From: Eledone cirrhosa
Lineage: Eukaryota
Assembly: GCA_964016885.1 (NCBI GenBank)
Contig: OZ024742.1
Location: forward strand, 366,792,001 to 366,856,000
Direction: 5' to 3'
DNA: 64,000 bases
Shown here piece after piece: positions 6,427-64,000 of the stretch (positions within the stretch are counted from its first letter, which is position 1; each line of letters starts with the position of its first letter). Position numbers and translations under genes: made by a program. The notes below the pieces were generated by a model, which was not told the origin of the DNA, searched no databases, and saw only the letters and a list, made by a program, of their open reading frames with translations.

Positions 6427-6583
<157 letters not shown>

Positions 6584-6812
6584 GCATGGGTTCGATTCCT
6601 GCACTTTGTTGTGTGTTGCGGTCTTGAGCAGAACACTTCATTTCAGAAAATGTGTACCTGCAATAGCTGGGGGCTAACCCTGCGATTGTCTGATATCCAG
6701 GGATGGGGGGAGTCTTGTACTCTAAGTCACTTTCTACCATTGAAAAGAGTACTCAATACCGAACTACCTTTAATATTCATTTTATTAAAATTAAATCTAT
6801 TTAGCTTCAGGA

Positions 6813-6845
<33 letters not shown>

Positions 6846-6942
6846 TGTATGTATGTATGTATGTATGTATGTATGTATGTATGTATGTATGTATGCATAT
6901 ATATATATATATAGTTATGTAATAAACAACATAAGGCAATTA

Positions 6943-7002
6943 TTCCATTTACCAGTGGTTTCTTAAAAGCAAAAGATTTTGCTTTCAATCCTCAGAATGA
7001 AA
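6943..7002 (-). ncRNA. type I hammerhead ribozyme (outer-element pLTR family), intact core
   Basis: TTTCATT CTGAGGA TTGAAAGCAAAA-TC-TTTTGCTTTTAA GAAA CCACTGG TA AATGGAA; stems I, II and III all pair, GUA cleavage triplet. Confidence 0.85.
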
Positions 7003-7158
7003 AAATCCTGGTCTGTTTATTGAATTTGGATTTTAAAAACAAAAATGCAATCTACATGAAAGTGAGGCTGGAGAAGGAAGAAGGAAAGGAAAAATAAAAT
7101 AAAACTACACATGCAAACACACACAAAAACACGCACACACACACACAAAAGCATACAT

Positions 7159-7189
<31 letters not shown>

Positions 7190-7369
7190 CATACACTCAT
7201 ACATACACACACCCACACACATATATACACACATATATGTGTATATAAATACACACATACACATACATATACACATATATACATACGCACATAAAAATCA
7301 ACACATCCATACATACACATACATATATACAACCACACACACATATATACACACATACATATAAATATC

Positions 7370-9085
7370 AATTAACTAATAATAATACCTACAATACTAT
7401 CAATAAAGAAGCTAAAGAACTAGCTAGTTCTTTAAAAATAGATAACCAGATTGAAAGCCTAGCTAAGCGTAAAGAATAAATTACCCTTAAAGACCATAAA
7501 TTGGACTTTACTAATCGACCTAGTTGTAGACTAATTAACCTGGCTAAATCCGAGGTTGGCCTTGCAAGTAAAAAAATTTAAGAAACATAATTCTCCAAAT
7601 TAGAACTAACACTGACCTATCACAGTGGCTAAATACTTCCTCTGTTATTTCTTGGTTTAATAATATACAAGGTAAAAATAAATGTAGATTTACCCAATTT
7701 GATATTGTCAATTTTTACCCATCTATTACTGTTTCCTTATTAACTAATGCCTTAGATTTTGCAAGACCCTTCATTAATATTTCTAAATTAGAAGAAGACA
7801 TTATCTTTCATGCTAGAAAAACTTTACTCTTTACTAATGATAATATTTGTGTTAAAAAGTGAAACCCTGAAAACTCTTTAGATGTTGCAATGGGTTCATA
7901 TGAGAGTGCGGATGTGTGTGACTTAGTAGGATTATTCCTTTTCCACACCCTCAAAGAGAAATTTCCGTCCCATAATATCGGTTTATACCGTGATGACGGA
8001 TTAGCAGTTTCTCATACCACCAACGGCCATAACCTTGATAAATTCCGTAAAGATTTAATCAATACTTTTGCTAATCTTAACCTTAAAATCACTATAGATA
8101 CAAACCTTACTAATGCTAACTTTCTTGATATTAATCTTGATCTACTTACCGCCTCTTTTAAACCCTATCATAAACCTAATGAAAATCTTACGTATATACA
8201 CAAAGAGTCTTGCCATCCCCCTATAGTTTTTAATAATCTTATTCCTAACATTAGCCGTAGGATTTCTACCTTATCTTCGTCTATAGACATTTTTAATAAA
8301 GCCGCCCCTTATTATAATAAAGCCCTTAAGAACAGCGGTTTTACAGAAAACAATTCTTATTTACCTACTCCCACCCCCCCTAAAACTAACCACAATAACC
8401 GGAAAAGGAAGATTATTTGGTTCACACCCACCTTCTCTATAACTGTCAAAACTAATGTAGGAAGGAAATTCCTTGAACTATTAGACAAACATGTTCCTCC
8501 TAATCATAGATATTATAAGATATTTAATAGGAACGTAGTTAAGATCAGCTACTCTTGTTGCCCATCTATGAAGTCCAAAATCACCAGTTAAAACCATACG
8601 AGAACAAATCCAGGATGCAGTTGCAGGAAGCCGGATGAATGCCCATTGCAGGGTAAATGTAACACCAAATCTGTTGATTATGAGGCTAAGATAACACCAG
8701 TAATCAACAACCAGCCATCCAGGAGTGAGCGATATGTCAGTATGACCCAGGACAGGTTTAAAAACAGATTTTACTCACATGTCGCTTCTTTTAAGCACTC
8801 CGATAAACGAACATCAACGGCCCTCGCAAGTAAGGTGTGGGAACTCAAGGATAGTAACATCCCGTACTCTATTGATTGGTCTATATTAGACCATTCGAGG
8901 GAGTACCAAAGGGGCACAAAGAATTGTTCTTTGTGCACCACAGAAAAATATAGGATTTTGCTAAACTCGAGAGCCACTTCCGCTTGCCTTAACTCAAAGA
9001 CTGAGATTTCAGATGCTGTCCTCATCTAAAATCGCACCTGATCTGTAACTGGATTGACACTCCTATGATAAATCAACCGCCTTGA
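7370..9085 (+). pseudogene. Penelope/Naiad RT + GIY-YIG endonuclease pseudogene
   Basis: ITLKDHK, FDIVNFYPSI, MGSYESADVCDLVG, GLYRDDGL, CSCRKPDECPLQGKC, FKNRFYSH, CSLCTTEK; several stops and frameshifts. Confidence 0.9.
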
Positions 9086-9300
9086 ACTCCTTCTCTGCTC
9101 TTTACTTCTGCTACGGTTTATTATTTTGCTGAATCTACGTTCTGTACTCTTGTATATATATATTTTTCTCCCTTACCTCCCCTTATATTTCACCTTTTCC
9201 TATGTTTCTCCCCCCCCCATATATTCTTTTTGCCTTACCCTTCACATACCTATGTGTATGTGTATGTATATTTATGTGTATATATATATGTATATATATA

Positions 9301-9344
<44 letters not shown>

Positions 9345-9470
9345 AAGTTTTATTTAAATTGTTGGGTTACAACGAGTAAATATTTATAACTGATATAAAA
9401 GCACTCAACAAGTATTTGGAGTATATTTACGATATTAAATAAATGGAAACTATATTTATAAAACCATATT

Positions 9471-9536
9471 TATTTCATTATATATATTTCAGGGATATCA
9501 TATTAAAAATATGGTATGCCTTCTTCAGACAAAATA
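9471..9536 (-). ncRNA. minimal type I hammerhead ribozyme in 3' pLTR
   Basis: TATTTTGT CTGAAGA AGGCATACCATATT-TTT-AATATGATATCCCT GAAA TATATA TA ATGAAATA; palindromic TATATA in place of stem III. Confidence 0.8.
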
Positions 9537-9771
9537 CAATATAAACAGTCTTATAAATAGATAGATTTGACATACCTTAAACTTCCATTTAAAAAGTTGA
9601 TTTGGTAGTGAAAAATGTTAGGGACAGTTATAAAAAGAAAGAAAGAAAAAAAGCGAAGAAAAAGAAGAAATGCATGCAACTAAATAGAGAGAGATAGATA
9701 GAGAGAAGAAATTCATGTAAAGAAACAGAGAGAGATAGATAGAGAGAGAAAAAACACAGAGGGAGATAGAT

Positions 9772-9803
<32 letters not shown>

Positions 9804-10955
9804 AAAAATAGAGAGAGATAGATATAGATAGAGATAGAGAGAAAGAAAATAGGTAGTTGGGCACCAGTTGAATGACGTATCAATGATATATTTATTTATT
9901 TATTTATTTATTTAGTTCTAGTATTAAGGTAGAGAGAGATATATGTGGTTAGGAGAGAAAACAGCCGTTACATAGAGAGAAAAGAAAAATATCCAGACAT
10001 AAACGAGGCAGATTTAAAACATTATGTTTCATCAATGTAAAAATATTAATTCGTATTAATTAGGTATTATAATGTAAATATCAGTATTCATGAATGAGAC
10101 ACGTATCAATAATGTGTGAAAAATAATGATCACATGTCTAGTTTAAAATTCCTAGGTTTATATCAGAGTTGAGTTAAAAAACTGAGATAAAAAAAAAATG
10201 AGATAAAAAAAAACTGAGATAAAAAACTGAGATAAAAAACTGAGATAAGAAAACTTTAAAAAAAATTGAAATACATAAGTATATATGCACTTTCATGAAA
10301 AAAAAAAAAAAAAAAAAAAAAAAGAAAGAAGAAAAAGAAAAAGAAAATAGAAGGTTATCCCAGATTCGATACTATAGACTTCCATGTGAATTTACGTGAT
10401 CAACTCTGCAAATTCCTATTTCACATGAAAACATTCTCATTGTGCTATAAAAATTCTAGTATACATATATGTGTACATACACACAAATATATATAGAATC
10501 TACATTAATTTTAACAATACCATTCTTGTCTTTACTCTACATGATTATCGTTCAAGCATAAATAGACAACAGATACCAATATATGAATAAAAATATCAAA
10601 AAATTAAAAAATATTAAAAATAAAACAGTATGCCCCGCAAATCAACCACAGAGATCAACCCTTCAAAAATTAATTGACAATATATTGCCAATCAGAATCA
10701 AAAGCAAACAAAACCAAAATTATTTACCAAATCCTGTCTAGCAGAAATCATTCCAAAAGTTTAGGATACCCATTTGATCTACAGATGGTCTTATATTTAT
10801 TATAGAAGTTTATCTAGTGTAAAATTTATTCGATATATTTGGAGCATCAGCTTTTAGGGTAGTTTAATTAATTCATGAAGAATGTTTAAAAAAAAAAAGA
10901 AATCGAAAGATTTATCGGCGAGTTTCATAAATAATTATAAATCAAAGTAAATATA

Positions 10956-13184
10956 CTACATTTTAAATTTATATTTATATTTAAAAGTTGAGTTCAATCT
11001 ATGTCTGCAGCAACTGAATACATTTGTCCGTAAATTAAGGGAATTTTTAGATTTTAGTATAAAGAATATCTCCTCCGCGCAGAGGTCACATGTCTCAGAG
11101 GATGAATTAAAAGGAATCCCTCTTGAGACTATATTCCAAGCCGTCGAATATCCAACGTTATCATGCTTAAGTTGCCAGAGTAAGCCTGATAGTGATGTTG
11201 AAGATTTTTTGCTTGGATCTGTGAAAGAATACTTGTGGTTATTATAGCGAAGTTTAAATTCTGTCGAGGTGGAACCAACATAGTTAAAAGAATTTAAGTC
11301 CGTTTTAACATTACAGTTGTATATTATATTTTTAACTAAGCAATTGTTATTTAACGGACATTTAGATCTATCTCTACAGTTACATTTGTTTACTTGGATA
11401 TTATTTATGCTATTATCGCTATTTTGGCTAGGTTTTAAATTCCTATTATTTATTCTATTAATATTTTGTGCTAAATTTTTGGTGGATGAGTAAGTTAATT
11501 TTATAGTATGTCTATTGAAAATTGAGTGATACCTATGTGTTCTAGGGAAGCGATTATCAAGAGCATTAAAAAATAGTTTAGCGATGTGGGTTTTAATGTT
11601 TAGTGAGAAAGGGGGGGGGGGGGCAAACCATATTATATTCCTAGTTCTATTTCTTTTTTGGCTTTTGGAATTATTGTAATGCTTTCTATTATAGTTGTTA
11701 AAGTTGTTGCCGTAATTAAAATTGTTGTTATTTTGGTTAGTTTGTCTATTATTATCTATGTACATAATTTTATCACTATATCCTGCTCTAGCTAACGCTT
11801 CATTGTAATACTGGGCCTTTTCGTCGAAAATCTTTTTATTAGATGAGATTCTAGAGATACGTTTTTGAACAGAGTTCACTATAGTATTTTTAACAGATCT
11901 GGAGTGGTTAGAGTTAAAACTGACATAGTTTAAGTTTTCATTCAACTTGTGAAATGGATAGTGAAGACATGTGTTGAGATTTAATGTTACATCTAGGAAA
12001 TAGACTATTCTATGGTTATTCTCAATTTCTATTTTTAGATTAAAGTAATTAAAAAATTGTGTAATTTGTTTTCTTTTTCTATTTAGTTCAGAGTTATTAT
12101 TTTCAATAAGTAAAAGCATGTCATCTCTATATAAACCTCCGGTAGCACCGGGTATTTTCCTATGCAGCGAATTGATTATAAATAGGCCCACAAGGTCAGT
12201 TACCTGAGCTGAGTCGGATGATCCCATAGTAATGTCGAAATTGTTATCTCTATCTGCTCTGGTCCATAGTTGGTCATTAAATTCTATCAATGTTCTCCTA
12301 GCCGATAATATAATGTGCATTTCATTGCTAGTTAGGTCTGTATGTTTGAATGCGTAATTTAGTGCCTTATTTAGTAGATTAGGGGTAATAGATGAATAAT
12401 AGTTAGCAATATCTAGTTGAATAAATTTATTATTATTGTTATATTTAATTTCTTTAAACCACTCAATAACCTCTCCAGTTCCCTTCCACAAGCTCAAGTT
12501 AGGCAAACAATTCAAGGTTTTAATTTGCTGTATCACCCTGTCTAGAATGTTTTTGCTTAGTTTACCCAGGTCAGATTTTGATGGTGCAATCAATCTAACT
12601 GGCAGGTCATTTTCAAAATTTCTTTTGTGATCTTTCATATTGATCTTCGGTTTCCTGGGCACGAAAGGTTGTGTTCTGTTCTCAATTTCCAACTCATGCA
12701 TTATACAAGATGCCTCAACATTCATTTTCTCAAGCTCGGCCTTATCTGCTACCTTGTACTTTTTTCTCAGTTCTTTCAGTATGAGGCCATCATACATATC
12801 TTTTTGCACTCCATAGAGGTTGTTGGTCTTGTCAGATTTCACCAAGATCTTCTCAGTTTTCTCTAAGCTCTCAATATTATCCTTAATGCCTTTCAGATAT
12901 TCCTGGCCTTTGAAGTTTCTCTTGAATTTGACTCCTTGTATGATAGAAATTATATCGTTTTCAAAGTCAAATAAAAGTTTGTTGGGGGGTGGATTTTTTT
13001 TAGATTTGAAAACTTTGTCTAAGTCCGAGACATTTTCATTTATATTAGATTTATCAAAGTGGAATGCACGCCACCTGATTCTCCTTATAAAAGAGTTCGA
13101 TTTATCTATTAATTGTTTAATAAAGTCTTTGTTTCTAGGTAGAGGTATGTCTTTTAAAGAGGAAGAAATCTTAAAGAATTCCAT
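10956..13184 (-). CDS. Penelope-like (Naiad-type) reverse transcriptase + GIY-YIG endonuclease, 742 aa, uninterrupted
   Basis: SLKDIP N-terminus, SDKTNN (DKG-like), LDIANYYSSI, MGSSDSAQVTDLVG, LYRDD, CNCx5Cx5C linker, IIY...YVG, FKLRYNNH, CDLC...CRH. Confidence 0.95.
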   Translation of the reverse strand: MEFFKISSSLKDIPLPRNKDFIKQLIDKSNSFIRRIRWRAFHFDKSNINENVSDLDKVFKSKKNPPPNKLLFDFENDIISIIQGVKFKRNFKGQEYLKGIKDNIESLEKTEKILVKSDKTNNLYGVQKDMYDGLILKELRKKYKVADKAELEKMNVEASCIMHELEIENRTQPFVPRKPKINMKDHKRNFENDLPVRLIAPSKSDLGKLSKNILDRVIQQIKTLNCLPNLSLWKGTGEVIEWFKEIKYNNNNKFIQLDIANYYSSITPNLLNKALNYAFKHTDLTSNEMHIILSARRTLIEFNDQLWTRADRDNNFDITMGSSDSAQVTDLVGLFIINSLHRKIPGATGGLYRDDMLLLIENNNSELNRKRKQITQFFNYFNLKIEIENNHRIVYFLDVTLNLNTCLHYPFHKLNENLNYVSFNSNHSRSVKNTIVNSVQKRISRISSNKKIFDEKAQYYNEALARAGYSDKIMYIDNNRQTNQNNNNFNYGNNFNNYNRKHYNNSKSQKRNRTRNIIWFAPPPPFSLNIKTHIAKLFFNALDNRFPRTHRYHSIFNRHTIKLTYSSTKNLAQNINRINNRNLKPSQNSDNSINNIQVNKCNCRDRSKCPLNNNCLVKNIIYNCNVKTDLNSFNYVGSTSTEFKLRYNNHKYSFTDPSKKSSTSLSGLLWQLKHDNVGYSTAWNIVSRGIPFNSSSETCDLCAEEIFFILKSKNSLNLRTNVFSCCRHRLNSTFKYKYKFKM

Positions 13185-13362
13185 TTTTTCAGTTATAATT
13201 TAAAGCGCTCAACAGTATTGGAGCAAGATATATGCAAAGTTTTATTTAAATTGTTGGGTTACAACGAGTAAATATTTATAACTGATATAAAAGCACTCAA
13301 CAAGTATTTGGAGTATATTTACGATATTAAATAAATGGAAACTATATTTATAAAACCATATT

Positions 13363-13428
13363 TATTTCATTATATATATTTCAGGGATATCATATTAAAA
13401 ATATGGTATGCCTTCTTCAGACAAAATA
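13363..13428 (-). ncRNA. minimal hammerhead ribozyme in upstream pLTR
   Basis: Identical to 9471-9536. Confidence 0.8.
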
Positions 13429-48883: not shown

Positions 48884-51738
48884 TCAGGAACCCACAACCA
48901 ACCATCAAGCCCAGAAACGCACCACCTACCATCCAGCCCAGGAACCCACAACTTACCATCCAGCCCAGAAACGCACCACCTACCATCCAACCCAGAAACC
49001 CACCACCTACCATCCAACCCAGAAACCCACCACCTACCGTCCACCCCAGAAACCCACCACCTACCATCCAGCCCAGAAACCCACCACCTACCGTCCAACC
49101 GAGAAACCCACCACCTACCGTCCAACCCAGAAACCCACCACCTACCGTCCACCCCAGAAACCCACCACCTACCGTCCACCCCAGGAACCCACCACCTACC
49201 TTCCAACCCACAAACACACCACCTACCGTCCAACCCAGAAACCCACCACCTACCTTCCAACCCAGAAACCCACCACCTACCATCCAACCCAGAAACCCAC
49301 CACCTACCTTCCACCCCAGAAACCCACCACCTACCGTCCAACCCAGGAACCCACCACCTACAGTCCAACCCAGGAACCCACCACCTACCTTCCACCCCAG
49401 AAACCCACCACCTACCGTCCAACCCAGGAACCCACCACCTACAGTCCAACCCAGAAACCCACCACCTACCTTCCAACCCAGAAACCCACCACCTACCTTC
49501 CACCCCAGAAACCCACCACCTATCTTCCAACCCACAAACACACCACCTACCGTCCAACCCAGAAACCCACCACCTACAATCCAACCCAGGAACCCACCAC
49601 CTACCGTCCAACCCAGGAACCCACCACCTACCATCCAACCCAGAAACCCACCACCTACCTTCCAACCCAGAAACCCACCACCTACCTTCCAACCCAGAAA
49701 CCCACCACCTACCATCCAACCCAGAAACCCACCACCTACCTTCCACCCCAGAAACCCACCACCTACCGTCCAACCCAGGAACCCACCACCTACCGTCCAA
49801 CCCAGGAACCCACCACCTACAGTCCAACCCAGGAACCCACCACCTACCTTCCACCCCAGAAACCCACCACCTACCATCCAACCCAGGAACCCACCACCTA
49901 CCTTCCACCCCAGAAACCCACCACCTACCGTCCAACCCAGGAACCCACCACCTACAGTCCAACCCAGAAACCCACCACCTACCTTCCAACCCAGAAACCC
50001 ACCACCTACCTTCCAACCCACAAACACACCACCTACCGTCCAACCCAGAAACCCACCACCTACCGTCCAACCCAGGAACCCACCACCTACCGTCCAACCC
50101 AGAAACCCACCACCTACCATCCAGCCCAGAAACCCACCACCTACCTTCCAACCCAGAAACCCACCACCTACCGTCCAACCCAGGAACCCACCACCTACCT
50201 TCCAACCCAGAAACACACCACCTACCGTCCAACCCAGGAACCCACCACCTACCGTCCACCCCAGAAACCCACCACCTACCTTCCAACCCAGAAACCCACC
50301 ACCTACCGTCCAACCCAGGAACCCACCACCTACCATCCAGCCCAGAAACCCACCACCTACCGTCCACCCCAGAAACCCACCACCTACCGTCCAACCCAGA
50401 AACCCACCACCTACCGTCCAACCCAGGAACCCACCACCTACCGTCCAGCCCAGGAACCCACCACCTACCGTCCAACCCAGAAACCCACCACCTACCTTCC
50501 AACCCAGGAACCCACCACCTACCTTCCAACCCAGAAACCCACCACCTACCGTCCAACCCAGGAACCCACCACCTACCATCCAACCCAGAAACCCACCACC
50601 TACCGTCCAACCCAGGAACCCACCACCTACCTTCCAACCCAGAAACCCACCACCTACCGTCCAACCCAGGAACCCACCACCTACCATCCACCCCAGAAAC
50701 CCACCACCTACCGTCCAACCCAGGAACCCACCACCTACCATCCAACCCAGAAACCCACCACCTACCGTCTAACCCAGGAACCCACCACCTACCATCCAGC
50801 CCAGGAACCCACCACCCTACCATCCAACCCAGAAACCCACCACCTACCGTCCAGCCCAGGAACCCACCACCTACCGTCCACCCCAGAAACCCACCACCTA
50901 CCGTCCAGCCCAGGAACCCACCACCTACCGTCCACCCCAGAAACCCACCACCTACCGTCCAACCCAGGAACCCACCACCTACCATCCACCCCAGAAACCC
51001 ACCACCTACCGTCCAACCCAGGAACCCACCACCTACCATCCACCCCAGAAACCCACCACCTACCATCCAACCCAGGAACCCACCACCTACCGTCCAGCCC
51101 AGGAACCCACCACCTACCTTCCAACCCAGGAACCCACCACCTACCATCCACCCCAGAAACCCACCACCTACCATCCAACCCAGGAACCCACCACCTACCG
51201 TCCAGCCCAGGAACCCACCACCTACCGTCCAACCCAGGAACCCACCACCTACCGTCCAGCCCAGGAACCCACCACCCTACCGTCCAGCCCAGGAACCCAC
51301 CACCTACCGTCCAGCCCAGGAACCCACCACCTACCATCCACCCCAGGAACCCACCACCCTACCGTCCAGCCCAGGAACCCACCACCTACCGTCCAGCCCA
51401 GGAACCCACCACCTACCGTCCACCCCAGGAACCCACCACCCTACCGTCCAGCCCAGGAACCCACCACCTACCGTCCAGCCCAGGAACCCACCACCTACCA
51501 TCCACCCCAGGAACCCACCACCCTAGCGTCCAGCCCAGGAACCCACCACCTACCATCCAGCCCAGAAACCCACACCCTACCGTCCAGCCCAGGAACCCAC
51601 CACCTACCGTCCAACCCAGGAACCCACCACCTACCGTCCAACCCAGGAACCCACCACCCTACCGTCCAACCCAGGAACCCACCACCTACCATCCAGCCCA
51701 GAAACCCACACCCTACCGTCCAGCCCAGGAACCCACCA
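48884..51738. repeat. 27-bp minisatellite, roughly 100 units
   Basis: CCCAGAAACCCACCACCTACCGTCCAA; 28-bp indel variants beyond 50800. Confidence 0.95.
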
Positions 51739-52426: not shown

Positions 52427-52465
<39 letters not shown>

Positions 52466-55400
52466 TATTTCTTTTATTTGCCACTAGGGCATCAAAAGTG
52501 GGACAAGTACAAAGGGGGGAGTTTACACAAAAAGGCGTCCTCAATAAGGAGGAGGCAATAACAAAATATAAAAATAAAATAAGATATAACAAAAAATAAA
52601 ATTTTTAACAAAATCCTCAATAGAGAGGAGGCGCCTTGGGGGGTCGCACACACCCCCGAAAAAAGTGTGCAACCCTTCTCCTCAGGAGCACAGAGAAGGG
52701 GTGCTCCCTTGGTCTTTCATCTTCCTCACCTATAGTCTGATGTAGAGTGAAGGCCCATTCACACGGGCCATTCTCGCCACTTTCACCCATCTTTCATAGA
52801 AACGGCTGGGGTGCAGCACCTCTCTCTCCATCCTGATCCTTCTTCCGAAATGATATCGGAAGAAACGGACCAGTTGTTGGCCAGAGAGAAAGGTGCCCGA
52901 CCTCAGTCCTTTCAGACGCGTCCACCATACAACCTCTTTCGCCATGGCTATTACGCACAGAAACACCGCCTCTGCTTCATCTTTGAAGGGGGGAGGCGGC
53001 TTGATCATTACAATAGACTCGGTGGTCAACCGGATCGGTCCCACCCTTGACAGCAGTTGTTCGACATAGCCCCACAGATCGGCTACGCCCGAGCAGTGTA
53101 CTAATGCGTGTGCAACGGTTTCCTCGTCGCACACGCATCTGGGACAGATCTTTTTGGCGGGGTCCCTACCCGGGCGCCCGTGTCTGTAGAGCCTTTCTCG
53201 AACGGGTAAAGCCCCTCGGTAGCACTGCCAGGCCAGGGACTTCTGGAAGTTGTCCATAGGTCCCGGGCTGAATGTCCTACCGAACAGGCTGGCCAGTTCG
53301 TCCTCCTCCATGTCTAGGGCTTCTCCGAGGGCGTCGTCGCACCTGCTGCGTACCAGCCCTCTATAGAATGTTGCGGTGGAGTCTCCACTGATAACCGGAT
53401 CCGCCTGCCAGAGGGTGGTGAGCGCCTGGGCACACTCAGTGTGCCAGGCGCCCAGTTTTCTCGGTCTTTGCTTGACCCAGGATTGCAGCTCGGTGAGTGA
53501 GACGAGTCTGGGAAAGGTTCGTCTCACAAACGAGGCCCACACCGGTTGTCCGGTGAGGAATACGTAGAGGTGCCGTAGCCTTAATGCGTGTTTACGCATC
53601 ATTAGCCACGGCATCCCCAGCCCTCCTTTCGAAGGGTGTTGACAGCAGATGGATCTCCTCACCATAGGAGCCCGCCTCTTCCAAAGGAATTGGAAGAGCG
53701 CGCGCTCCATCTTGGTGAGGGTTTCCCTTGGGCAGGGCACTACGGTCAGGCGGTAGTAGATGACGGACGCTATGTAGGTGTTCGCCACCTCCGCCCGGCC
53801 TTTCAGGGATAGTTTGCAACTGGCCCACTTCTGGGTCAGTGCAAACACCCTGTTCGTAACCTCCGCCCAGTTTTTCTCCACCTGGAGGTCCGGTCCGAAC
53901 CAGACCCCGAGCAACTTCACCGGGCCCTCCGTCCAGCGTCCGACGACGCTATCGGAGGGCATCGGTCTGCCCCTCCACGTGCCGAGTTGCAAACCGATCG
54001 ACTTGTCCCGGTTCAGCTTAGCCCCTGTGAACTTTTCGTACTCCTCCAGTAAGGTGCCGACCGCCTCGATTTCGGAGGCCGTCGACACCATTACTGTCAC
54101 GTCATCGGCGTAGGCCGACACCGCTTTCCGCAATCCCGGTTCCAAAGGGATGCCCTGCAACAACTCCAACTTCCGCAGTAGTGGCTCGAGAGTCAACACA
54201 TACAGAAGGGAGGAGAGAGGGCACCCTTGTCGGATGGACCGCGCGATTTTGAACGGCTCCGAGAGGTAGCCGTTCACCTTGACCCTAGAGCAGATGCGGC
54301 TGCTGTGCATAGCAGTGATCCAGCCCCTGAAAACGGGTCCGAAGCCTGCCGCCGCTAGCACCGCATCCAGGTAACCATGGTCGACCCTATCGAACGCCTT
54401 AGATTGATCCAAGTTGATCAGAGCCCCACCAAAGCCGGGTTCGTTCCCAACCCTCTCTATGATGTATCGCATGAGGTGGAGGTTGTCATGGATGGACCTG
54501 GACGGGATAGCGCATGTCTGCGCATCTCCCACCAGGTTGCCCACGACAAGCGCCAACCTCTTTGCTAGCACCTTGGCCAAAATCTGTAACTCTGTATTTA
54601 GCAGTGTTATGGGCCTGAAGTTACTTATTTCGTCCCCCTTGTTCTCGTCCTTCCTCACTAGCGTGACTACGCCCTTGGTCACAGTACAGGGAATTCTCCC
54701 GTTCTGTTGCCAGTTGCAGTAGACCGCCTCGAGGAGATCGGGGAACAAGTCCGGCATAGCTAGATATAATTCGTAAGGAAGACCATCGAGACCCGGGGAT
54801 TTGCGTTTGCCGCATTGGCTCAGCACGTCCTCTATCTCAGCGGCCGAAATCGGCTCTTCGCAGGACTTCGCCTCCCTGTCCGAGAGGCGCGGCAGGCCGT
54901 CGAGGTATGGACCGAAGTCCACGTTCCCAACCGGCTCCCCGCCCCTCCCGAACAGTCGGGCAAAGTGCCTTTGAAAGGCCTCACACATCTGCTTAGGCTC
55001 AAGAATCGCCCGTCCATCCAGGTCTCGCAAAGACCGGATGGTGGATTTAGTTCCACTGTTGGCCTCTGTCACGCGGGCCCAGCTAACAGCTTTGGTCCCC
55101 TCGTTCCCTAGAGCACGTATTTTACTTCGGACAACGCAGCCTTCGTGCTTCGCGTCGAAAAACTGGCTCAAAGCCGTTCTCGACGCTAGCACTCTGGCCA
55201 CGTCGCCGCTTCTAATTGCCTCTTCTACTCTATCTATTAGCTCCCTTTCCTTCCTATTCCTATCCGCAGCTAGAACCTTACTAAATTCTATCGAGACTAC
55301 TCTAATCTCTCTCTTTAGAGATACCCACCACCTGCTGTTGACGATCGCTCCAGTCAACCGTTCCTTAACTAACGTACTAATCCGATTCCTGTAGGCTCTA

Positions 55401-56654
55401 CTTGCCGGCAAGGACAAGTTGAGCTTCCAGTAACCGGGGCCCTGTCTATGAGTTCTGTCAAGGTTGACCATGCAGGTCACTAATTTGTGGTCTGAATAGC
55501 CAACAATGCGCATTTTTGGACAACTTAAAAAGTCCTTATCCTTAATTCTAACTAAGAACCTATCTAGGTACGACCTAGATGATCCGCTACGATTTGCCCA
55601 AGTCCAGGTTGGCGCAGTCGGAAAATCTAGTCGATATCTATCGGCCAGGTCAAATCGACCGATTAACCCTTTGAGGCTATTACACCCCTCTCTATCGGGG
55701 CAGGCCCCTACGTAGTCCCAGCGTGCATCTAGGATACCATTCCAGTCCCCCACTAATAGCAAGGAGCGGGACGTCCCTAGAAAAGTCTCCAGACGATGGA
55801 AGAAGTCCGGCCGCATTGACCCGAAAGGGCCGTAGGCGGCTACCAACCTAAACGCTCCGCCTTTACCACTGCCAAGGTCCAGAACCACTAGTCGACCCTC
55901 CGGGTCCAAATGTACCATCTGTGTTGCGAGACCCAGATGTTTTTGCAGCAGAACGACAACTCCACCCCCACCTCCGGGCTGACAGAGAGATGCGTGCATC
56001 TCAAAGTCATCAAAGGTGGGGGCCAGCTGTCGCACGTTGCTGATCCGGGCCTCGCAAATAACCATCACATCTATACGTTGTGACCTGAGGTCATTTAGAA
56101 GCATTGCTTGCTTCCAAGTTGAGCCCAGGCCACGCGCATTTAAACAGCCTACTCTTAGCATAGCCATGTTGGTGGTGAAGAGAAAAGGCACTTACCTCTC
56201 TGCGTCCCGGGTATCGGGCTGCACAATTTCCATTAGGGTGGGGGATGGGTTGTTGGGTGGGGTGGTGGTTTGTGGAAGTGTGGGGGCATCAGTGTGTTGT
56301 GTGGTTGGGGAGCTTGGAGTTGTGAGGGTGTTTGGGGAGGGGGTGGGATAGTTTTTTAGGAGGACGCGGTTAATGGGCCCGACGCAGGGGGGACCCACGT
56401 CCTCTTTAAAATTGTTTTTTAAAGTTTTATAGGTGTCCTGTGGGGCCTTAATCATTTTGAGGTGGGGGAAATCCCCTGCCTGGGTGAAGTTAGGCCCTTG
56501 TGTTTTTATTAGATTGTTGTTGTACACAATGTTTAACAGTTTTTTGTTTCTTGTATTTATGTATGTGTATGCATGTTTTTGTTTTTGTGTGGTGTTTTTT
56601 GTTTGCTGTTGTGAGCTCTTTTGTGTTGGTGTCAGTATTATGTTTTGGGGAGGG
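52466..56654 (-). mobile_element. Tx1/L1-clade LINE B, 5'-truncated within ORF1
   Basis: ORF1 remnant 56192-56654, intact ORF2, about 260-nt 3' UTR with AATAAA; (GATA)n on both sides (52428-52465, 56655-56680). Confidence 0.92.
52730..56167 (-). CDS. LINE ORF2: APE endonuclease + reverse transcriptase + C-terminal zinc finger (1145 aa from ATG 56167)
   Basis: LNARG, GDWN, YLDRF, SDH, WKLN, SPGLDG, FRPITLLN, DQSKAFDRV, QGCPLS, YADD, CPRC...ETVAHALVHC. Confidence 0.95.
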   Translation of the reverse strand: MAMLRVGCLNARGLGSTWKQAMLLNDLRSQRIDVMVICEARISNVRQLAPTFDDFEMHASLCQPGGGGGVVVLLQKHLGLATQMVHLDPEGRLVVLDLGSGKGGAFRLVAAYGPFGSMRPDFFHRLETFLGTSRSLLLVGDWNGILDARWDYVGACPDREGCNSLKGLIGRFDLADRYRLDFPTAPTWTWANRSGSSRSYLDRFLVRIKDKDFLSCPKMRIVGYSDHKLVTCMVNLDRTHRQGPGYWKLNLSLPASRAYRNRISTLVKERLTGAIVNSRWWVSLKREIRVVSIEFSKVLAADRNRKERELIDRVEEAIRSGDVARVLASRTALSQFFDAKHEGCVVRSKIRALGNEGTKAVSWARVTEANSGTKSTIRSLRDLDGRAILEPKQMCEAFQRHFARLFGRGGEPVGNVDFGPYLDGLPRLSDREAKSCEEPISAAEIEDVLSQCGKRKSPGLDGLPYELYLAMPDLFPDLLEAVYCNWQQNGRIPCTVTKGVVTLVRKDENKGDEISNFRPITLLNTELQILAKVLAKRLALVVGNLVGDAQTCAIPSRSIHDNLHLMRYIIERVGNEPGFGGALINLDQSKAFDRVDHGYLDAVLAAAGFGPVFRGWITAMHSSRICSRVKVNGYLSEPFKIARSIRQGCPLSSLLYVLTLEPLLRKLELLQGIPLEPGLRKAVSAYADDVTVMVSTASEIEAVGTLLEEYEKFTGAKLNRDKSIGLQLGTWRGRPMPSDSVVGRWTEGPVKLLGVWFGPDLQVEKNWAEVTNRVFALTQKWASCKLSLKGRAEVANTYIASVIYYRLTVVPCPRETLTKMERALFQFLWKRRAPMVRRSICCQHPSKGGLGMPWLMMRKHALRLRHLYVFLTGQPVWASFVRRTFPRLVSLTELQSWVKQRPRKLGAWHTECAQALTTLWQADPVISGDSTATFYRGLVRSRCDDALGEALDMEEDELASLFGRTFSPGPMDNFQKSLAWQCYRGALPVRERLYRHGRPGRDPAKKICPRCVCDEETVAHALVHCSGVADLWGYVEQLLSRVGPIRLTTESIVMIKPPPPFKDEAEAVFLCVIAMAKEVVWWTRLKGLRSGTFLSGQQLVRFFRYHFGRRIRMEREVLHPSRFYERWVKVARMARVNGPSLYIRL

Positions 56655-56912
56655 TAGATAGATAGATAGATAGATAGATAAATTTCTATTTATTTGCCAC
56701 GAGGGCACAAAAGAAGGGGACATTTACACAGTGGGGGAGTTTACATAAATCGAGTAAAGAAAAAAGGAATAACAATAATAATATAACAATAAAAAGTCCT
56801 CAAAAGGGAGGGGGCGTGTTGGGGATTGCACATACCCCCGAAAAGTGTGCAACTCTTTTCGCGGGGGAAGCCCAGAGAGGAGGCGCTCCCCCTTTCCTCT
56901 TCACTTCTTCAC

Positions 56913-59900
56913 CTACAGAACAATGTAGAGAGAAGGCCCATTTACACGGGCCATTCTCGCTTCTTTCACCCACCTTTCATAAAACTGTCTGGGACCAAGC
57001 ACTTCTCTCTCCATCCTGATTCTTCTTCCGAAGTGGTATCGGAAGAAGTAAACCAGGTGATGGCCGGAGAGAAAGTCACCCGACCTTAGACCTTTCAGGC
57101 GCGTCCACCAAACAACCTCTTTCATCATGGCTATTACGCACAGAAAGACCGCCTCTGCTTCATTTCTGAAGGGAGGAGGCGGCTTGATGTTCACCACAGA
57201 CTCGGCGGTTAATCGAATCGGCGCCACACGCGACAGCAGTCGTTCGACGTAGCCCCACAGATCGGCAACGCCCGGGCAGTGTACCAGTGCATGCGCAACG
57301 GTTTCCTCGTCGCGCACGCATCTGGGACAGATCTTTTTCGCGGGATCCCTGCCCGGGCGCCCGTGTCTGTAGAGCTTTTCTCGAACGGGCAGAGCCCCCC
57401 GGTAACACTGCCAGGCTAGGGACCTCTGGAAGTTGTCCATGGGTCCCGGGCCGAAAGTTCTACCGAACAGGCTGGCCAGTTCGTCTTCCTCCATGCCTAG
57501 CGACTCTCCAAGGGTGTCGTCGCCCCTGCTAGCCACCAACCCTCTATAGAATGTCGAGGTGGATTCTCCACTGACAGTCGGGTCCGCTTGCCAGATAGCC
57601 GTGAGCGCCTGGGCACACTCGGTGTGCCAGTTGCCCAGTTTTCTCGGTCTTTGCTTCACCCAGGATTGCAGTTCGGTGAGCGAGACGAGCTGTGGGAAGG
57701 CTCGCCTCACAAACGGGGCCTACACCGGCTGACCGTTGAGGAATACCTGTAGATGCCGTAGCCTCAATGCGTGCCTACGCATCAACAGCCACGGCATACC
57801 CAGCCCTCCTTTCGAAGGGTGCTGGCAGCAGATGGATCTCCTCACCATGGGAGGCCGCTTCTTCCAGAGGAACTGGAAGAGCATGCGTTCCATGATGGTG
57901 AGCTTTTCCTTGGGGCAAGGCACGACGGTCAGGCGGTAGTAGATGACGGACGCTATGTAAGCGTTCGTCACCTCCGCCCGACCTTTCAGTGATAGTTTGC
58001 ACTTGGCCCACTTCTGGGTCAGCGCAAACACCCTGCTCGTCACCTCGCCCCAATTCTTCTCCACCTGGAGGTCCGGTCCGAACCAGACCCCGAGCAGCTT
58101 CACCGGGCCCTCCGTCCACCGCCCGACGACACCGTCTAACGGCATCGGTTTGCCCCTCCACGTTCCGAGTTGCAAACCGACTGACTTGTCCTGGTTCAGC
58201 TTAGCCCCCGTCAGCCTTTCGTATTCCTCCAGTAGGGTGGCGGTCGCCCCGATTTCCGAGGCGTCCGCCACCATTACTGTTACGTCGTCGGCATAGGCCG
58301 AGACCGCTTTGTGCAATCCCGGTTCCAGGGGTATGCCCCGCAGCAACTCCAACTTCCGCAGCAGTGGCTCGAGAGTCAATACGTACAGAAGGGAGGAGAG
58401 GGGGCACCCCTGTCTGATGGATCGGGTGATTTGAAACGGCTCCGAGAGGTAGCCGTTTACTTTAATCCTAGAGTAGATGTTGCCACTGTGCATGGCAGAA
58501 ATCCAGCCCCTGAAAACGGGTCCGAAGCCCGCCGCCGCTAGCACCGCATCCAGGTAACCATGGTCGACCCTATCGAACGCCTTAGATTGATCCAAGTTGA
58601 TCAGGGCCCCACCAAAGCCGGGTTCGTAGCCAACCCTCTCTATGATGTATCGCATGAGGTGGAGGTTGTCGTGAATGGACCTGGACGGGATAGCGCATGT
58701 CTGCGCGTCTCCCACCAAACCACCCACCACAAGCGCCAACCTCTTCGCCAACACCTTGGCCAAAATCTGTAACTCTGCATTCAGCAGAGTTATGGGCCTA
58801 AAGTTACTTAAGTCGTCCCCCTTGCTCTCGTCCTTCCTCACTAGCGTGACCACGCCCTTGGTCACAGAACAGGGAATTCTCCCGTTCTGTTGCCAGTTGC
58901 AATAGACAGCCTCGAGGAGTTCGGAGAACAAGACCGGCATAGCTAAATAAAGTTCGTATGGTAGACCATCGAGACCCGGGGATTTGCGTCTGCTGCATTG
59001 GCTGAACGCTTCCCCGATTTCAGTGGCTGTGATTGGCCTTTCGCAGCACTCCGCTTCGCCGCTCGAAAGACGCGGTAGACCGTCGAGGTATGGACCGAAG
59101 TCCACATCCCCGTCCGGCCCCCCGCCACCTCCGAACAGTCGAGCAAAGTGCCTTTGAAAGGTCTCGCACATTCGCTCAGGTTCAAGGATCACCCGTCCAT
59201 CCTGGTCTCGCAAAGACCGAATGGTGGATTTAATCCCACTCTTGGCTTCTGTCACGCGGGCCCAGCTAACAGCTTTGGTCCCCTCGTTTCCTAAAGCACG
59301 TATTTTACTTCGGACAACGCAGCCTTCGTGCTTCGCGTCAAAGAACTGGCTCAATGCCGTTCTCATCGCTAACACTCTGGCTACGTCTCCGCTCCTAATC
59401 GCCTCTTCTAGTTTATCTGTTAACTCCCTTTCCCTCCTATTTCTATTCGCCGCTAGTTCCTTACTGTAACCTATCGAACTTACTCTAATCTCTCTCTTTA
59501 GAGATATCCACCACCTACTGTTGACGATCGCTCCCGTCAACCGCATCTTAACTAAGCTACTAATCCGGTTTCTGTAATCTTTCTTTGTCGGTAAGGACAA
59601 GTTCATCTTCCAGTAACCGGGGCCCTGTCTATGCGTTCTATCAAGGTTGACCACGCAGGTCACTAATTTGTGATCTGAATAGCCAACCATGATCAGTTCT
59701 GGACAACTAAATACGTCCCTATCCTTACTCCTAACCAAAAACCTATCTAGGTACGATCTAGATTGTCCACTGCGGTTTGCCCAGGTCCAGGTTGGCGCAG
59801 TTGGACAATCTAGTCGAAATCTATCGACCAGGTCGAATCGATCGAGTAACCCCTTGAGGCTGCTACACCCCCCTCTATCGGGACATGCCCCTGCATAGTC

Positions 59901-60354
59901 CCAACGCGCATCTAGGATTCCATTCCAGTCCCCCACTAAAAGCAGGGAACGTGACGTTCCTAGAAAAGTCTCCAGACGCTGGAAGAAGTCGGCTCTTTCC
60001 GCCCCGAAGGGAGCATAAAGACCGACCAGTCTGAAAGCCCCGCCTTCACCGCCTCCGACGTCCAGCACCAGTAATCGACCCCCCGGGTCCGAGTGAACAA
60101 TCTGTACGTCGAGAGTCAGACGTTTATCCAGCAGTACGGCAACTCCCCCCCCCCCCGCCTCCGGGTTGACAGAGAGATGCGTGCATCTCAAAGTCATCGA
60201 AGGCGGGCGCCAGCTGTCTCACGCTGCTGATCCGACTCTCGCAAACAACCATCACATCTATACTTTGTGACCTGAGGTCACTTAGAAGCTTTGCTTGCTT
60301 CCAAGCTGAGCCCAGGCCACGCGCGTTCAAACAGCCAACTCTCAATTGATCTAT
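56913..60354 (-). pseudogene. ORF2 of LINE A, disrupted
   Basis: Colinear with ORF2 of LINE B; frameshift in the C-run at about 60145-60156, TAG at 57720 where B has Trp, ATA where B has ATG. Confidence 0.9.
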
Positions 60355-62186
60355 TTTGGTGTTGAAAGTGAAGAAAGAAAAGCACTTACCTCTCCGGGTT
60401 GCGTAATTTCCATGGCATCAGGTGTGTTGGGTGGAGGGATGTTTTGTGGTGGTGTGGGGGTACACGTGTGTGGTGGGGTTGGGGTATTTGGAGTTGTGTC
60501 AGGGAGAGGGGCGGTTATGGGGAAATCTTTCAAGAGGACGCGATTCAACGGTTTTAAACAGGGGGGGCTCACGTCCCGTCTAAATTGTTCTTTTAAGGAA
60601 CGATAAAGGTCCAGAGGGACCTTTATCATTTTTAAATGGGTGAAGTTCTCTGTTGAGATAAAGTTTGGCCCTTCGGTCTGCACCATAGGGTTATTGTTTA
60701 TTAATTTAACCAGTTTTTTGTTTTCTTTATTTATATATGTGTATTGCAACGTCTTTTTTTGTGATGCTGTCAATGTTTCGGAGAGGGGAGGCGCAGATTT
60801 ATTTTTGTTTGTTGAGGGTGGGGTGTTTTTGATTGGAGTTGGTGTTTGTGTGTGGGTTATTTGTGGTGTGCTGGGTGTGTGTTTTCTTTTTTTTCTTTTA
60901 ACTTGTCTGAAGGCTTCTCCTCCTTCTTCTTCAGAAGTTGGGGGAAACTCTTCAGCGCTAGGTGGGAGGGACGTGTTGTGTGGTTGTTTTTTTTTTGCGG
61001 GAGGGGTAGATTTGTTACTGTTTTTTTTATTATTTGTTTGGAATGGGTTTTGTGGTGGTGGTGGTGGTAATGTTTGTGTCGTGCTTGTGGTTGGTGATGG
61101 TGGTGGTGATGTTTGTGTTGTGGTTGGTGGTGGTGATTTTTGTGTCGTGCTTGTGTTTGGTGCTGGTGGTGGTGATGTTTGTGTTGTGTTTGTGGTTGGT
61201 GGTGTCTGTATTTTGTTTGCTGTGTGTGGTATTAGTGTATTTTTGGAGGTGGGTGGTGCTGGTGTACTGTTTGTGGTGGGTGTGGGCAATAGTCCTTTTT
61301 GGGGGATACGTTTCGGGCAGTTAGCCTTAACGTGTCCCCTTTCCATGCATAAATAGCATGCTGGTCTTCTCCCCTCTACAATTATGTCTATTGGGGTAAG
61401 GTCATCCAGCCAGATGCGATCCGGGATTTGTGCTATTCTTTCGGGCCTCATTTGGACTAGTATGTCGAGGCCCATTCCCAGGAACGCATCTCCAGTTGCC
61501 TTCCCCATTGACAGCATAGTGTCTTCGCCCATATCAATGAAGCCAGCAATAGCCCACCAGAAGTCCATTGTGGGCAGCATTGTTTTTACTTTTACTCTCT
61601 GTGTTCTTCTACCCATGTAGGAGGGATAGAAGCTATATGTTGTCGACGAGAGTGGGCTTAGGGAAAGCTTCTCCGCCGTTTCTTTGTCTCTTGTTAGGAC
61701 CGAAATGCTGCCATAGAGTCGGTCCTTTCGTATGAAGAGAATATTCTTCATATAGTCTTTTAGAACTAACTCTATTTCCATTTGGCTGGGCTGTGCTGGC
61801 TTTCTTGTCTGGTTCAGTATAGTTCTGTATAGAACTGTGTTTTCTGCTCTGGCTTTCTTGAATTCTGGGGGGGAGTTAATGGAAAACATTCCGTTCTCCC
61901 CCAAAACAATATGTTTCTTTGCTTCGGCCAGTTTTTCTCTGGCGGCAGTTAGGTCAATTGGTGTGTATGTAATGGATTGTTTTGTTTTCTGGGCGAAAGT
62001 TGCCCTGTCGTTATTTGTATTATTTTCTGTTTGTTTGTTTTCTGTTTGCTCATTTTCCTTAACATTTGTTTTTTCATTTTGTTTGTTTGTTTCAATGTCT
62101 AATTTTGTTGTAATTATTTTTTGTTCTTCAGACTTGGGGGGCGTGGCAGAGCTAATGGCAGACATGTCTGCCATCTTTTCCGCCAT
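60351..62186 (-). CDS. LINE ORF1 gag-like protein with CCHC zinc knuckle and Pro/Thr-rich region (611 aa from ATG 62186)
   Basis: EGRRPACYLCMERGHVKANC (CX2CX4HX4C); C-terminus homologous to the ORF1 remnant at 56192-56527. Confidence 0.9.
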   Translation of the reverse strand: MAEKMADMSAISSATPPKSEEQKIITTKLDIETNKQNEKTNVKENEQTENKQTENNTNNDRATFAQKTKQSITYTPIDLTAAREKLAEAKKHIVLGENGMFSINSPPEFKKARAENTVLYRTILNQTRKPAQPSQMEIELVLKDYMKNILFIRKDRLYGSISVLTRDKETAEKLSLSPLSSTTYSFYPSYMGRRTQRVKVKTMLPTMDFWWAIAGFIDMGEDTMLSMGKATGDAFLGMGLDILVQMRPERIAQIPDRIWLDDLTPIDIIVEGRRPACYLCMERGHVKANCPKRIPQKGLLPTPTTNSTPAPPTSKNTLIPHTANKIQTPPTTNTTQTSPPPAPNTSTTQKSPPPTTTQTSPPPSPTTSTTQTLPPPPPQNPFQTNNKKNSNKSTPPAKKKQPHNTSLPPSAEEFPPTSEEEGGEAFRQVKRKKRKHTPSTPQITHTQTPTPIKNTPPSTNKNKSAPPLSETLTASQKKTLQYTYINKENKKLVKLINNNPMVQTEGPNFISTENFTHLKMIKVPLDLYRSLKEQFRRDVSPPCLKPLNRVLLKDFPITAPLPDTTPNTPTPPHTCTPTPPQNIPPPNTPDAMEITQPGEVSAFLSSLSTPK

Positions 62187-62387
62187 GCTGCCAAGAAAGA
62201 AATTTTTCGGCAAAAATAGATATTTATTTTACCCCCTAAAAAGGGGGTAAATGCAAAAATGTTTCCCTAAATAACAGGGGTTAGTGTTCCAAATGTGTTG
62301 CACTAAAAGATTTATCCGGTACTTACAATAGTAAGGGTAAATCCCGATGGAATAGCGGAGCCGATGCGAAGCGTGTCTTACTCTATC

Positions 62388-62422
<35 letters not shown>

Positions 62423-62915
62423 GTAATAGAGATAAATATTGGGTAGATAGATTGATAAAAAAACATAGATAGGTAAGAAGGTAATAGATTGATAAAAACA
62501 TAGATAAAAAGGTAATAGATAGGTAGATAATATAAATAGATGCCAACACCGAATTTGAGAATTCAATTGGTGAAGCATCGATCCACCGAAGACATTTCTA
62601 CAAGGTGTCATTAATCAAATACACAGCTACTGAACCTACTTAGAATATCAAAGCAGGAAATAATATAAAGGTTGTGAACTGTTTTTGTTTTCGTTTTACT
62701 TCATTTTGTTATTGTTTTAGTTGTGTTTGTTGTTTAGTGTTGTTTTCAAGGTGTGTTGTCTAAATAATACATTATTGATTAAGATAGCTGCCTGGACAAC
62801 CCTCCTCTTCTTATACACATGTATTTACAGAATTAATAAAAAAACTTATTCCCGTTTTTTTTTTAATAATGATTTAGTTCTATACACATCAAAATACACA
62901 CTTATATAGCAGTCT

Positions 62916-63089: not shown

Positions 63090-63334
63090 AGAAGGCTCAT
63101 TTGGCCGGTGCTTATCCCGGTTTCATGGCGTGAAGCGACTGAGAGTACAAGACTCCCCCCTGGACAGGACGCCAGTCCATCGCAGGATTAAACCTCCAGA
63201 TATTGTTGGTACTCATTTTCAGCTGAGTATACTGGAGCAACGTGAAATGAAGTGTTTTGCTCAAGAACACAACACGCAACCCAGGAATCGAACCCACGAC
63301 ATTATGATCTTAAGTCCACTAGGCCACGTGCCTC
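63090..63334 (-). mobile_element. family-2 tRNA-derived SINE with V-SINE-like core
   Basis: TGGCCTAGTGG A-box, GGTTCGATTCC B-box, CTTGAGCAAAACACTT, CCTGCGATGGACTGGCGTCCTGTCCAGGGG; partial copy at 6583-6740. Confidence 0.7.
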
Positions 63335-63341
63335 CACACAC

Positions 63342-63391
<50 letters not shown>

Positions 63392-63792
63392 AATAGAATG
63401 AAACGAAATTTCATTTCTCACTCTTAGTACGGCACTTACTTAAATGTAAGTATGTATGTATGTATACGTACATACATATATGTATACAGACATACAGTAG
63501 TATGTATATATATACATGCATGCACACATATATATATGTACGTATCGGTTTACCGAACATTTATTATAATGCTCGGTTTGTTTGTTTGTAAACAAACAAA
63601 CAGCCTGAATTACGCCGTACAGTGTTTAGGCAACCACATCACCTTTTTGTTCAACACTGACACAGGAACGATGTATTAGTTTCAAGCTTATTAGCTATGT
63701 GTGCATGTAAGTATATATATACATACTACTGTACGTATGTATACATATATGTGTGTACGTATAAATACATACATACTTACATTTATATATAT

Positions 63793-64000
63793 AAATGAAG
63801 TAATTCCGTCGGAAATGTCCAGGAAAAAAGAGTGCTCTATGTAGGTAACAGAGCTTAACAGTTATGTAATAAACAACACAAGGCAATTATTCCATTTACC
63901 AGTGGTTTCTTAAAAGCAAAAAATTTTGCTTTCAATCCTGAGAATGAAAAAATCCTGGTCTGTTTATTGAATTTGGATTTTTCCAAATTCAATAAACAGA
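63793..64000 (-). mobile_element. pLTR of the outer Naiad family with mutated hammerhead (63890-63949) and fold-back at 63959-64000
   Basis: Matches 6913-7030 and 16140-16321; core reads CTCAGGA; palindrome runs off the window end. Confidence 0.8.

Follow-up and report, generated by a model that had tools for sequence, protein, structure and literature searches.

Two L1/Tx1-group LINEs stacked in one (ATCT)n microsatellite of Eledone cirrhosa: probable targeting of (GATA)n/(TATC)n repeats

Results and discussion

Junctions and rarity of the repeat

A 64,000-nt stretch of the Eledone cirrhosa genome (assembly GCA_964016885.1, contig OZ024742.1, positions 366,792,001 to 366,856,000 of the forward strand; referred to as the window) holds two long interspersed nuclear elements (LINEs), A and B, stacked in the same microsatellite. 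Read along the minus strand, the order is a degenerate ATCT tract, (ATCT)n, A, (ATCT)n, B, (ATCT)n and then non-repeat host DNA (Table 1). That (ATCT)n was actively targeted, by whatever route, is very probable. More specifically, a probability of about 0.6 is given to the reading in which A and B target (TATC)n actively via a nick on the (GATA)n strand and priming on AUCU repeats at the RNA 3' end.

A preliminary description of this DNA had placed both elements in the same orientation with (ATCT)n at three junctions. Both lie indeed on the minus strand, with a perfect array at each junction and a degenerate continuation upstream of A to about 62541. It had also stated that the repeat 5' of A cannot be the tail of an element, which holds as well; the upstream tract shows no element 3' end. 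Apart from the repeat itself, this tract has no similarity to the 3' untranslated regions (UTRs) of A and B, and a third, upstream element with the 5' array as its tail was set aside since no 3'-UTR similarity was found. The degenerate tract is likely an older host microsatellite that predates both insertions; because the array continues as this decayed tract, the host array would have come first. Its ATCT-word density (0.299) tops that of all 2681 other 120-bp windows, with a close runner-up at 0.291.

Perfect microsatellite arrays of at least 16 bp occur 203 times in the window, covering 5398 bp. Four of them (117 of the 5398 bp) belong to the ATCT class, and three of these four are the element junctions. 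The fourth (36415-36433) is empty, lying among host repeats with no LINE alongside. Based on this empty array and on the fading of the array before A into a decayed tract, the host makes ATCT arrays without an element. Far commoner arrays, namely (AT)n with 2271 bp, (AC/GT)n with 777 bp and (CT/AG)n with 532 bp, are used by neither A nor B. A random 5' junction would abut an ATCT array with a post hoc probability of 117/(2 x 54,075 host strand positions), or about 1e-3. With three of four ATCT arrays at junctions, the local excess over chance is strong.

A 3' tail can account for the array after each element, not for the array before A or for B directly after the array of A. This bears on the explanation without targeting, in which ATCT is merely a 3' tail, whether of the elements themselves or of some upstream element that escaped recognition, and chance or passive retention in neutral DNA placed them side by side. 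The genome is very microsatellite-rich, the locus was chosen after the fact, and Waldo-A/B have been suggested to accumulate passively near repeats (PMC3812793). However, such an explanation requires two coincidences of about 1e-3 each, one for the array 5' of A and one for the insertion of B into a tail some dozens of bases long, it conflicts with an upstream tract devoid of an element 3' end, and passive retention leaves the choice of the 2% ATCT class unexplained. It is therefore considered very improbable. Tx1L and Tx1-Mar target a host transposon; a target of this kind is unsupported here within the window, where neither of the two immediate flanks is found a second time and the flanks have no open reading frame (ORF) in common. 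Neither BLASTN nor TBLASTN found copies within the window other than A and B themselves.

3' junctions and proposed mechanism

Both elements end in AGAAAT plus one base, followed by TATC repeats in the same register, a match that chance would give in 1 of 4 cases. In both, the repeat starts 7-8 nt after AATAAA, without poly(A). Repeat-only matches of 20-26 bp flank the two elements; these are compatible with a target site duplication (TSD) and indistinguishable from array sequence, and no TSD of unique sequence is present. At the 5' junction of A, a 14-bp stretch (62383-62396) forms a small palindrome consisting of six repeat bases, TT and their reverse complement, which opens the element. This may reflect snap-back synthesis, a 5' end that pairs with the target, or chance.

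Transcripts are usually cleaved 10-30 nt downstream of AATAAA. The anatomy described above is observed, and from it we infer each of the following enzymatic steps. A host (TATC)n array would have been present before the insertions. Because AATAAA lies only 7-8 nt before the repeat, with the usual spacing cleavage would fall within the flanking repeat, leaving a few UAUC units at the RNA 3' end. The ORF2 protein (ORF2p) would nick the purine-rich (GATA)n strand, after which the nicked 3' end would pair with the UAUC units and reverse transcription would start there, skipping poly(A). The second cut, being staggered, would give rise to a duplication of repeat units, and the insertion would leave fresh target on both sides. 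In the simplest order, A would have inserted first and B then into the array 3' of A. Since each insertion would recreate its target, later copies could stack. Two published observations concern such steps: the endonuclease hairpin loop influences the nicking preference of L1 (PMC1950540), and pairing between RNA and target helps priming in several LINEs (PMC6007223). In favour of this reading, A and B have nearly the same predicted hairpin loop, with a difference of a single residue.

Several points weigh against this reading. The endonuclease alone need not give the specificity, as the fixed register and the missing poly(A) could equally stem from read-through AUCU RNA that pairs with the nicked strand. 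In SART1Bm, a repeat-targeting LINE, a long poly(A) tail and not a read-through repeat gives accurate priming (PMC7265360), so that the RNA-repeat priming step is not general. The evidence comes from a single locus, chosen for its oddness, which makes the chance figure post hoc. Next, an (ATCT)n-encoded peptide was found in 0 of 308 gathered relative proteins, a low-power test of flanks by translation which rests on (ATCT)n being open in all sense frames, with 105 further proteins outside the scan. Two independent insertion events are unproven because A and B are not separable in age, and kinship gives no basis for specificity, as A and B are not nested among vertebrate TX1-named proteins (both see below).

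An RNA-directed route would replace endonuclease specificity by a relaxed endonuclease, with an (AUCU)n tail, as in RTE, CR1 and L2, pairing with nicked (GATA)n and choosing the site. Besides the repeat ends in one register without poly(A), it is favoured by the reported correlation of RTE 3' microsatellite tails with insertion sites (PMC6007223) and by the predicted hairpin loop of the endonuclease, which is L1-like with 9 residues between the anchors, versus 11 in the fish TX1-like group. The tail overlaps reported in the same paper, however, range from one to a few bases and would hardly yield perfect arrays of 26-39 bp on both sides, and known targeting in the Tx1 clade is credited mainly to the endonuclease. 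The RNA-directed route is therefore thought unlikely, and targeting through the nick on the (GATA)n strand remains the favoured reading.

Relation between A and B

A and B share 82.8% nucleotide identity over 4152 nt. Over 1144 codons of ORF2, the amino acid identity is 85%, with a synonymous divergence (dS) of 0.42 and a ratio of nonsynonymous to synonymous divergence (dN/dS) of 0.21. Therefore, they represent two subfamilies that diverged under selection and not a local duplication. Both look young. The observed/expected CpG ratios are 0.90 and 0.86 in the two copies versus 0.46 in host DNA, and private changes at conserved columns are balanced between A and B (11 vs 11 of 521; 0 vs 1 of 180), giving no age gap.

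This balance leaves room for a single event, in which reverse transcription started on B RNA at an ATCT array and then switched template to A RNA at its AUCU-terminated 3' end; the product would be a chimera of the U6/L1 or Alu/L1 kind. A complete upstream partner followed by a 5'-truncated downstream LINE on the same strand is the layout of L1 chimeras (bioRxiv 10.1101/2025.02.02.635956), and the youth of both copies, with no detected age gap, is in line with it. On the other hand, ORF2 carries three lesions in A against none in B (a difference that is not significant, one lesion being perhaps a sequencing error), tandem insertions one after another into a re-formed target are on record for SINEU-3, which is mobilised by Tx1, and the reported chimera partners are mostly short RNAs and not 5.7-kb elements. 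A chimera halves the targeting evidence and still needs one hit on an ATCT array. It is regarded as quite unlikely, and two successive insertions remain the preferred course of events.

The description of A as full-length holds for its layout, which is complete, and has to be qualified for ORF2, which carries three lesions. The 5' end at 62388 is a putative boundary, read from the one copy with full layout. The first lesion is ATA at 60354, where B has ATG; the second, in a 12-nt G run (60145-60156), is a surplus of 4 nt that may be a homopolymer sequencing error; and the third is TAG at 57722, where B has TGG. The two point lesions, in the start codon and in a Trp codon, are both G-to-A on the sense strand. 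Cephalopods show heavy A-to-I editing; with two sites only, ordinary mutation is most likely here. No ribozyme or other RNA family was found in the 5' region at the Rfam gathering score (weak chance matches had E values of 0.2-4.7), and folding of six UTR segments gave z scores of +0.1 to -2.6, by which conserved structure is not established.

B is 5'-truncated, as had been reported, beginning inside ORF1 and keeping an open ORF2 of 1145 aa. The Pfam domains of ORF2 are PF03372, PF00078 and PF13966. In B, the residues of the apurinic/apyrimidinic endonuclease (APE) are all present (N10, E39, Y112, D141, N143, D202, D226 and H227), together with YADD at 686 and CCHC at 1008. Their matching to L1 endonuclease numbering comes partly from alignment and is partly our assumption. 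The structure model of ORF2-B has a predicted local distance difference test (pLDDT) score of 84, and its best Foldseek match is L1 ORF2p (E 1e-52). The catalytic residues of ORF2-B are intact; selective cleavage of (GATA)n by its endonuclease is a prediction.

Classification

Human L1 is poly(A)-tailed, shows a weak preference for TT/AAAA and has an ORF1 of the coiled-coil type. Tx1-clade ORF1 proteins carry an RNA-binding domain and a CCHC knuckle, unlike the L1 coiled-coil type. ORF1 of A, with its CCHC knuckle, differs from L1 in the same way and fits the Tx1 type weakly, based on one zf-CCHC match below the Pfam cut-off (E 0.006-0.019) and on protein-atlas look-alikes, a lead only, that carry RNA-binding domains of the zf-CCHC, RRM and ZCCHC3 types (score 0.90-0.92). 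ORF2 has the L1-group architecture, namely an N-terminal APE, reverse transcriptase (RT), a C-terminal CCHC and no RNase H, and the best PDB matches by profile and fold are L1 ORF2p. Human L1 ORF2p and its endonuclease (PDB 8uw3, 1vyb, 2v0r) resemble ORF2-B in domain order, fold and residue count of the hairpin loop, at an identity of 17-19%.

Argonauta hians (63%) and Octopus sinensis (44%) supply the closest named proteins, with other relatives at 62-79%. One ORF2 fragment with 62% identity (P0105) is filed under a bacterial metagenome-assembled genome. It is likely host DNA contamination and not a bacterial gene; two scans of bacterial and archaeal genomes (GTDB) for stray host contigs gave no relative.

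Trees of the RT region were built from 204/255 segments, then from 90 (FastTree) and then from 29 (IQ-TREE, ultrafast bootstrap, UFBoot). Short fragments and near-duplicates were left out, including a TX1-named protein of Takifugu, and references are named by annotation transfer only. Full support unites A and B in one clade with their close relatives and with a further group of about 40% identity. The vertebrate clade of 'transposon TX1 149 kDa protein' (Betta, Alligator) is separate (support 1.0, UFBoot 98), and its members share 33-37% identity with A and B over the RT region. In the FastTree analysis, A and B are joined to the TX1-named clade with 0.896 and split from L1-like sequences with 0.966. 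In the IQ-TREE analysis, they are split from plant L1, a Phallusia protein and one protein that we take to be fish-L1-like at UFBoot 70-93, and linked to the TX1-named clade at UFBoot 35-51 only. A position of the window clade beside the TX1-named clade, seen in a 51-sequence IQ-TREE topology without support values, is unsupported in the 29-sequence tree. Kibi, Koshi, Keno and Dewa could not be identified by label among the protein matches.

The earlier assignment to two different Tx1 LINEs is thus retained for the two distinct subfamilies of the L1/Tx1 group, and loosened for Tx1 membership, as both fall outside the vertebrate TX1-named clade. As far as their sequences indicate, A and B are probably L1-group elements of Tx1-like type, those termed L1-Tx1 in the Octopus vulgaris annotation. 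In that species, 80 L1-Tx1 consensus families are reported, 13 of them recently active with 421 insertions (PMC13282606), and A and B may be among these families. The accessible part of that study contains no target analysis, and its supplement has no entry for GATA, TATC or microsatellite.

Comparison with known targeting elements

Dong is an R4 element with a restriction-like endonuclease. Other microsatellite-targeting retrotransposons without long terminal repeats (non-LTR) belong, unlike A and B, to other clades with other repeats: Waldo with the tetranucleotide (ACAY)n and Mino with (AC)n in the R1 clade, Dong with (TAA)n (PMC3812793), and the NeSL-related Togen with (TG)n (PMC4640811). 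Within the Tx1 clade, the teleost elements Kibi and Koshi target (TC)n and (TTC)n, respectively, and the crocodilian Tx1-1_Crp group targets (TTTC)n and (TTCC)n (PMC4494074). Like these, A and B are two-ORF APE-type LINEs that sit in a microsatellite rich in pyrimidines and with TC at the end of its unit, the repeat being on both flanks, a likeness which assumes that published targets are given in element-sense orientation. Unlike Kibi and Koshi, they have (TATC)n at all three junctions and not (TC)n or (TTC)n, despite the (CT/AG)n available in the window. ORF2-B is also shorter than in fish relatives (about 1280-1330 aa). While A and B lie outside the vertebrate TX1-named clade, Kibi and Koshi are not labelled within it. 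According to PMC4494074, a family is target-specific when more than 20% of its copies are flanked by the target; here, both copies of the window (2/2) are flanked by ATCT, at one locus.

No GATA/TATC-targeting non-LTR element was found in the full-text literature searched, although one may be recorded in Repbase, Dfam, Kojima and Fujiwara 2004, Fujiwara 2015 or figure 3 of PMC4494074. The suggestion that a GATA target is unreported for Tx1 stands to that extent. However, tetranucleotide targets were already known, and the novelty is smaller than first claimed because crocodilian Tx1 hits (TTTC)n and (TTCC)n, (TATC)n being one substitution away from (TTTC)n.

Splice-like motifs around ORF2

In both elements, ORF2 is framed by a donor-like and an acceptor-like site. 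Across both strands of the window, the 8-mer AG/GTAAGT has exactly two copies, one in each element, inside a 13-nt block that is identical in A and B; the preceding ORF1 sequence is 60-68% alike. By a crude pyrimidine count over 34 candidate sites in each element, the acceptor-like context shares the first rank in A and is one of three tied at the top in B. The motif copies of A and B are homologous and hence not independent. The predicted splicing would excise precisely ORF2, with ORF1 terminating no more than a few codons later, giving an ORF1-only RNA. In the literature search, splicing was found for human L1 and TART, and no spliced Tx1 case. A wider picture would combine a lineage apart from Kibi and Koshi, independently evolved (GATA)n specificity, self-recreating tandem stacks, and a whole ORF2 acting as a spliceable intron that switches between ORF1-only and mobile full-length RNA; this combination is speculative and rather doubtful.

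Table 1. Features of the stacked LINE locus and dispersed repeats in the window
Feature	Position	Strand	Remarks
Degenerate ATCT-rich tract	62422..62541	-	holds an internal 35-bp duplication
Perfect (ATCT)8.25	62389..62421	-	33 bp; adjoins 5' end of A
Element A	56681..62388	-	full-layout L1/Tx1-group LINE, 5.7 kb; ORF2 broken
5' UTR of A	62187..62388	-	about 200 nt; 10-bp hairpin 62228-62251
ORF1 of A	60351..62186	-	611 aa; one CCHC knuckle, long Pro/Thr-rich C-terminus, likely RRM-like RNA-binding region
Donor-like AG/GTAAGT of A	60384..60391	-	just before ORF2; perfect donor consensus
ORF2 of A	56913..60354	-	APE endonuclease, RT, CCHC; three lesions
Acceptor-like site of A	56915-56912	-	at ORF2 stop codon; pyrimidine tract + YAG/G
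3' UTR of A	56681..56912	-	232 nt; AATAAA 56694-56689, 8 nt before repeat; no poly(A)
Perfect (ATCT)6.5	56655..56680	-	26 bp; separates 3' end of A from truncated 5' end of B
Element B	52466..56654	-	LINE of second subfamily, 5'-truncated inside ORF1
ORF1 C-terminal remnant of B	56192..56654	-	52% identity to ORF1 of A over 87 aa
Donor-like AG/GTAAGT of B	56197-56190	-	before ORF2; contains ORF1 stop of B
ORF2 of B	52730..56167	-	intact, 1145 aa, APE-RT-CCHC
Acceptor-like site of B	52732-52729	-	at ORF2 stop codon; pyrimidine tract + YAG/G
3' UTR of B	52466..52729	-	AATAAA 52478-52473, 7 nt before repeat; no poly(A)
Perfect (ATCT)9.75	52427..52465	-	39 bp; 3' of B, then non-repeat host sequence
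MITE-like repeat copies	63712-64000, 6911-7367, 14890-15021, 15770-16402, 34567-34781, 35028-35627		
SINE-like repeat copies	63133-63389, 6490-6732, 5023-5146, 32478-32607, 26538-26631		

Other repeats in the window

The region 9422-14847 is likely a young Penelope-like element. It contains a 747-aa ORF (13199-10956, minus strand) with YRDD and a GIY-YIG-like C-terminus by eye and no Pfam match, flanked by 1.3-kb inverted repeats (9422-10691 and 13504-14847; 91% identity, with blocks of 98-99%) and a 273-bp direct repeat. A second Penelope-like RT fragment was recognised by eye at 7863-8591 (plus strand), and the two copies of an 830-bp repeat (8539-9340 and 36584-37399) are 81% identical. At least six copies of a dispersed repeat resembling a miniature inverted-repeat transposable element (MITE) are present, with 79-98% identity and internal inverted segments, often beside (TA)n. 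An older repeat like a short interspersed nuclear element (SINE) has a B-box-like motif and 68-79% identity between copies. Long minisatellites (unit lengths of 27, 44 and 28 bp) and an array of (GGT)n type occupy 48885-51738, 28887-30179, 23178-23931 and 1232-4058; long open frames in the minisatellites are repeat artefacts.

Conclusions

Microsatellite-targeting LINEs are already known, and A and B define no new element class. What is probably new, on the basis of one locus, is the target and the host group, and perhaps the lineage. If targeting is true, the short list of sequence-specific APE-type LINEs would gain a further repeat target and a host from a phylum new to it, and microsatellite targeting may have arisen independently. 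The recognition of microsatellites by APE-type elements has been called poorly understood (PMC3812793), and the intact ORF2-B is a reagent for asking whether the endonuclease, RNA pairing or both are responsible. Targeting would also explain the clustering of LINEs at GATA arrays and the cross-locus flank similarity of GATA markers in cephalopods.

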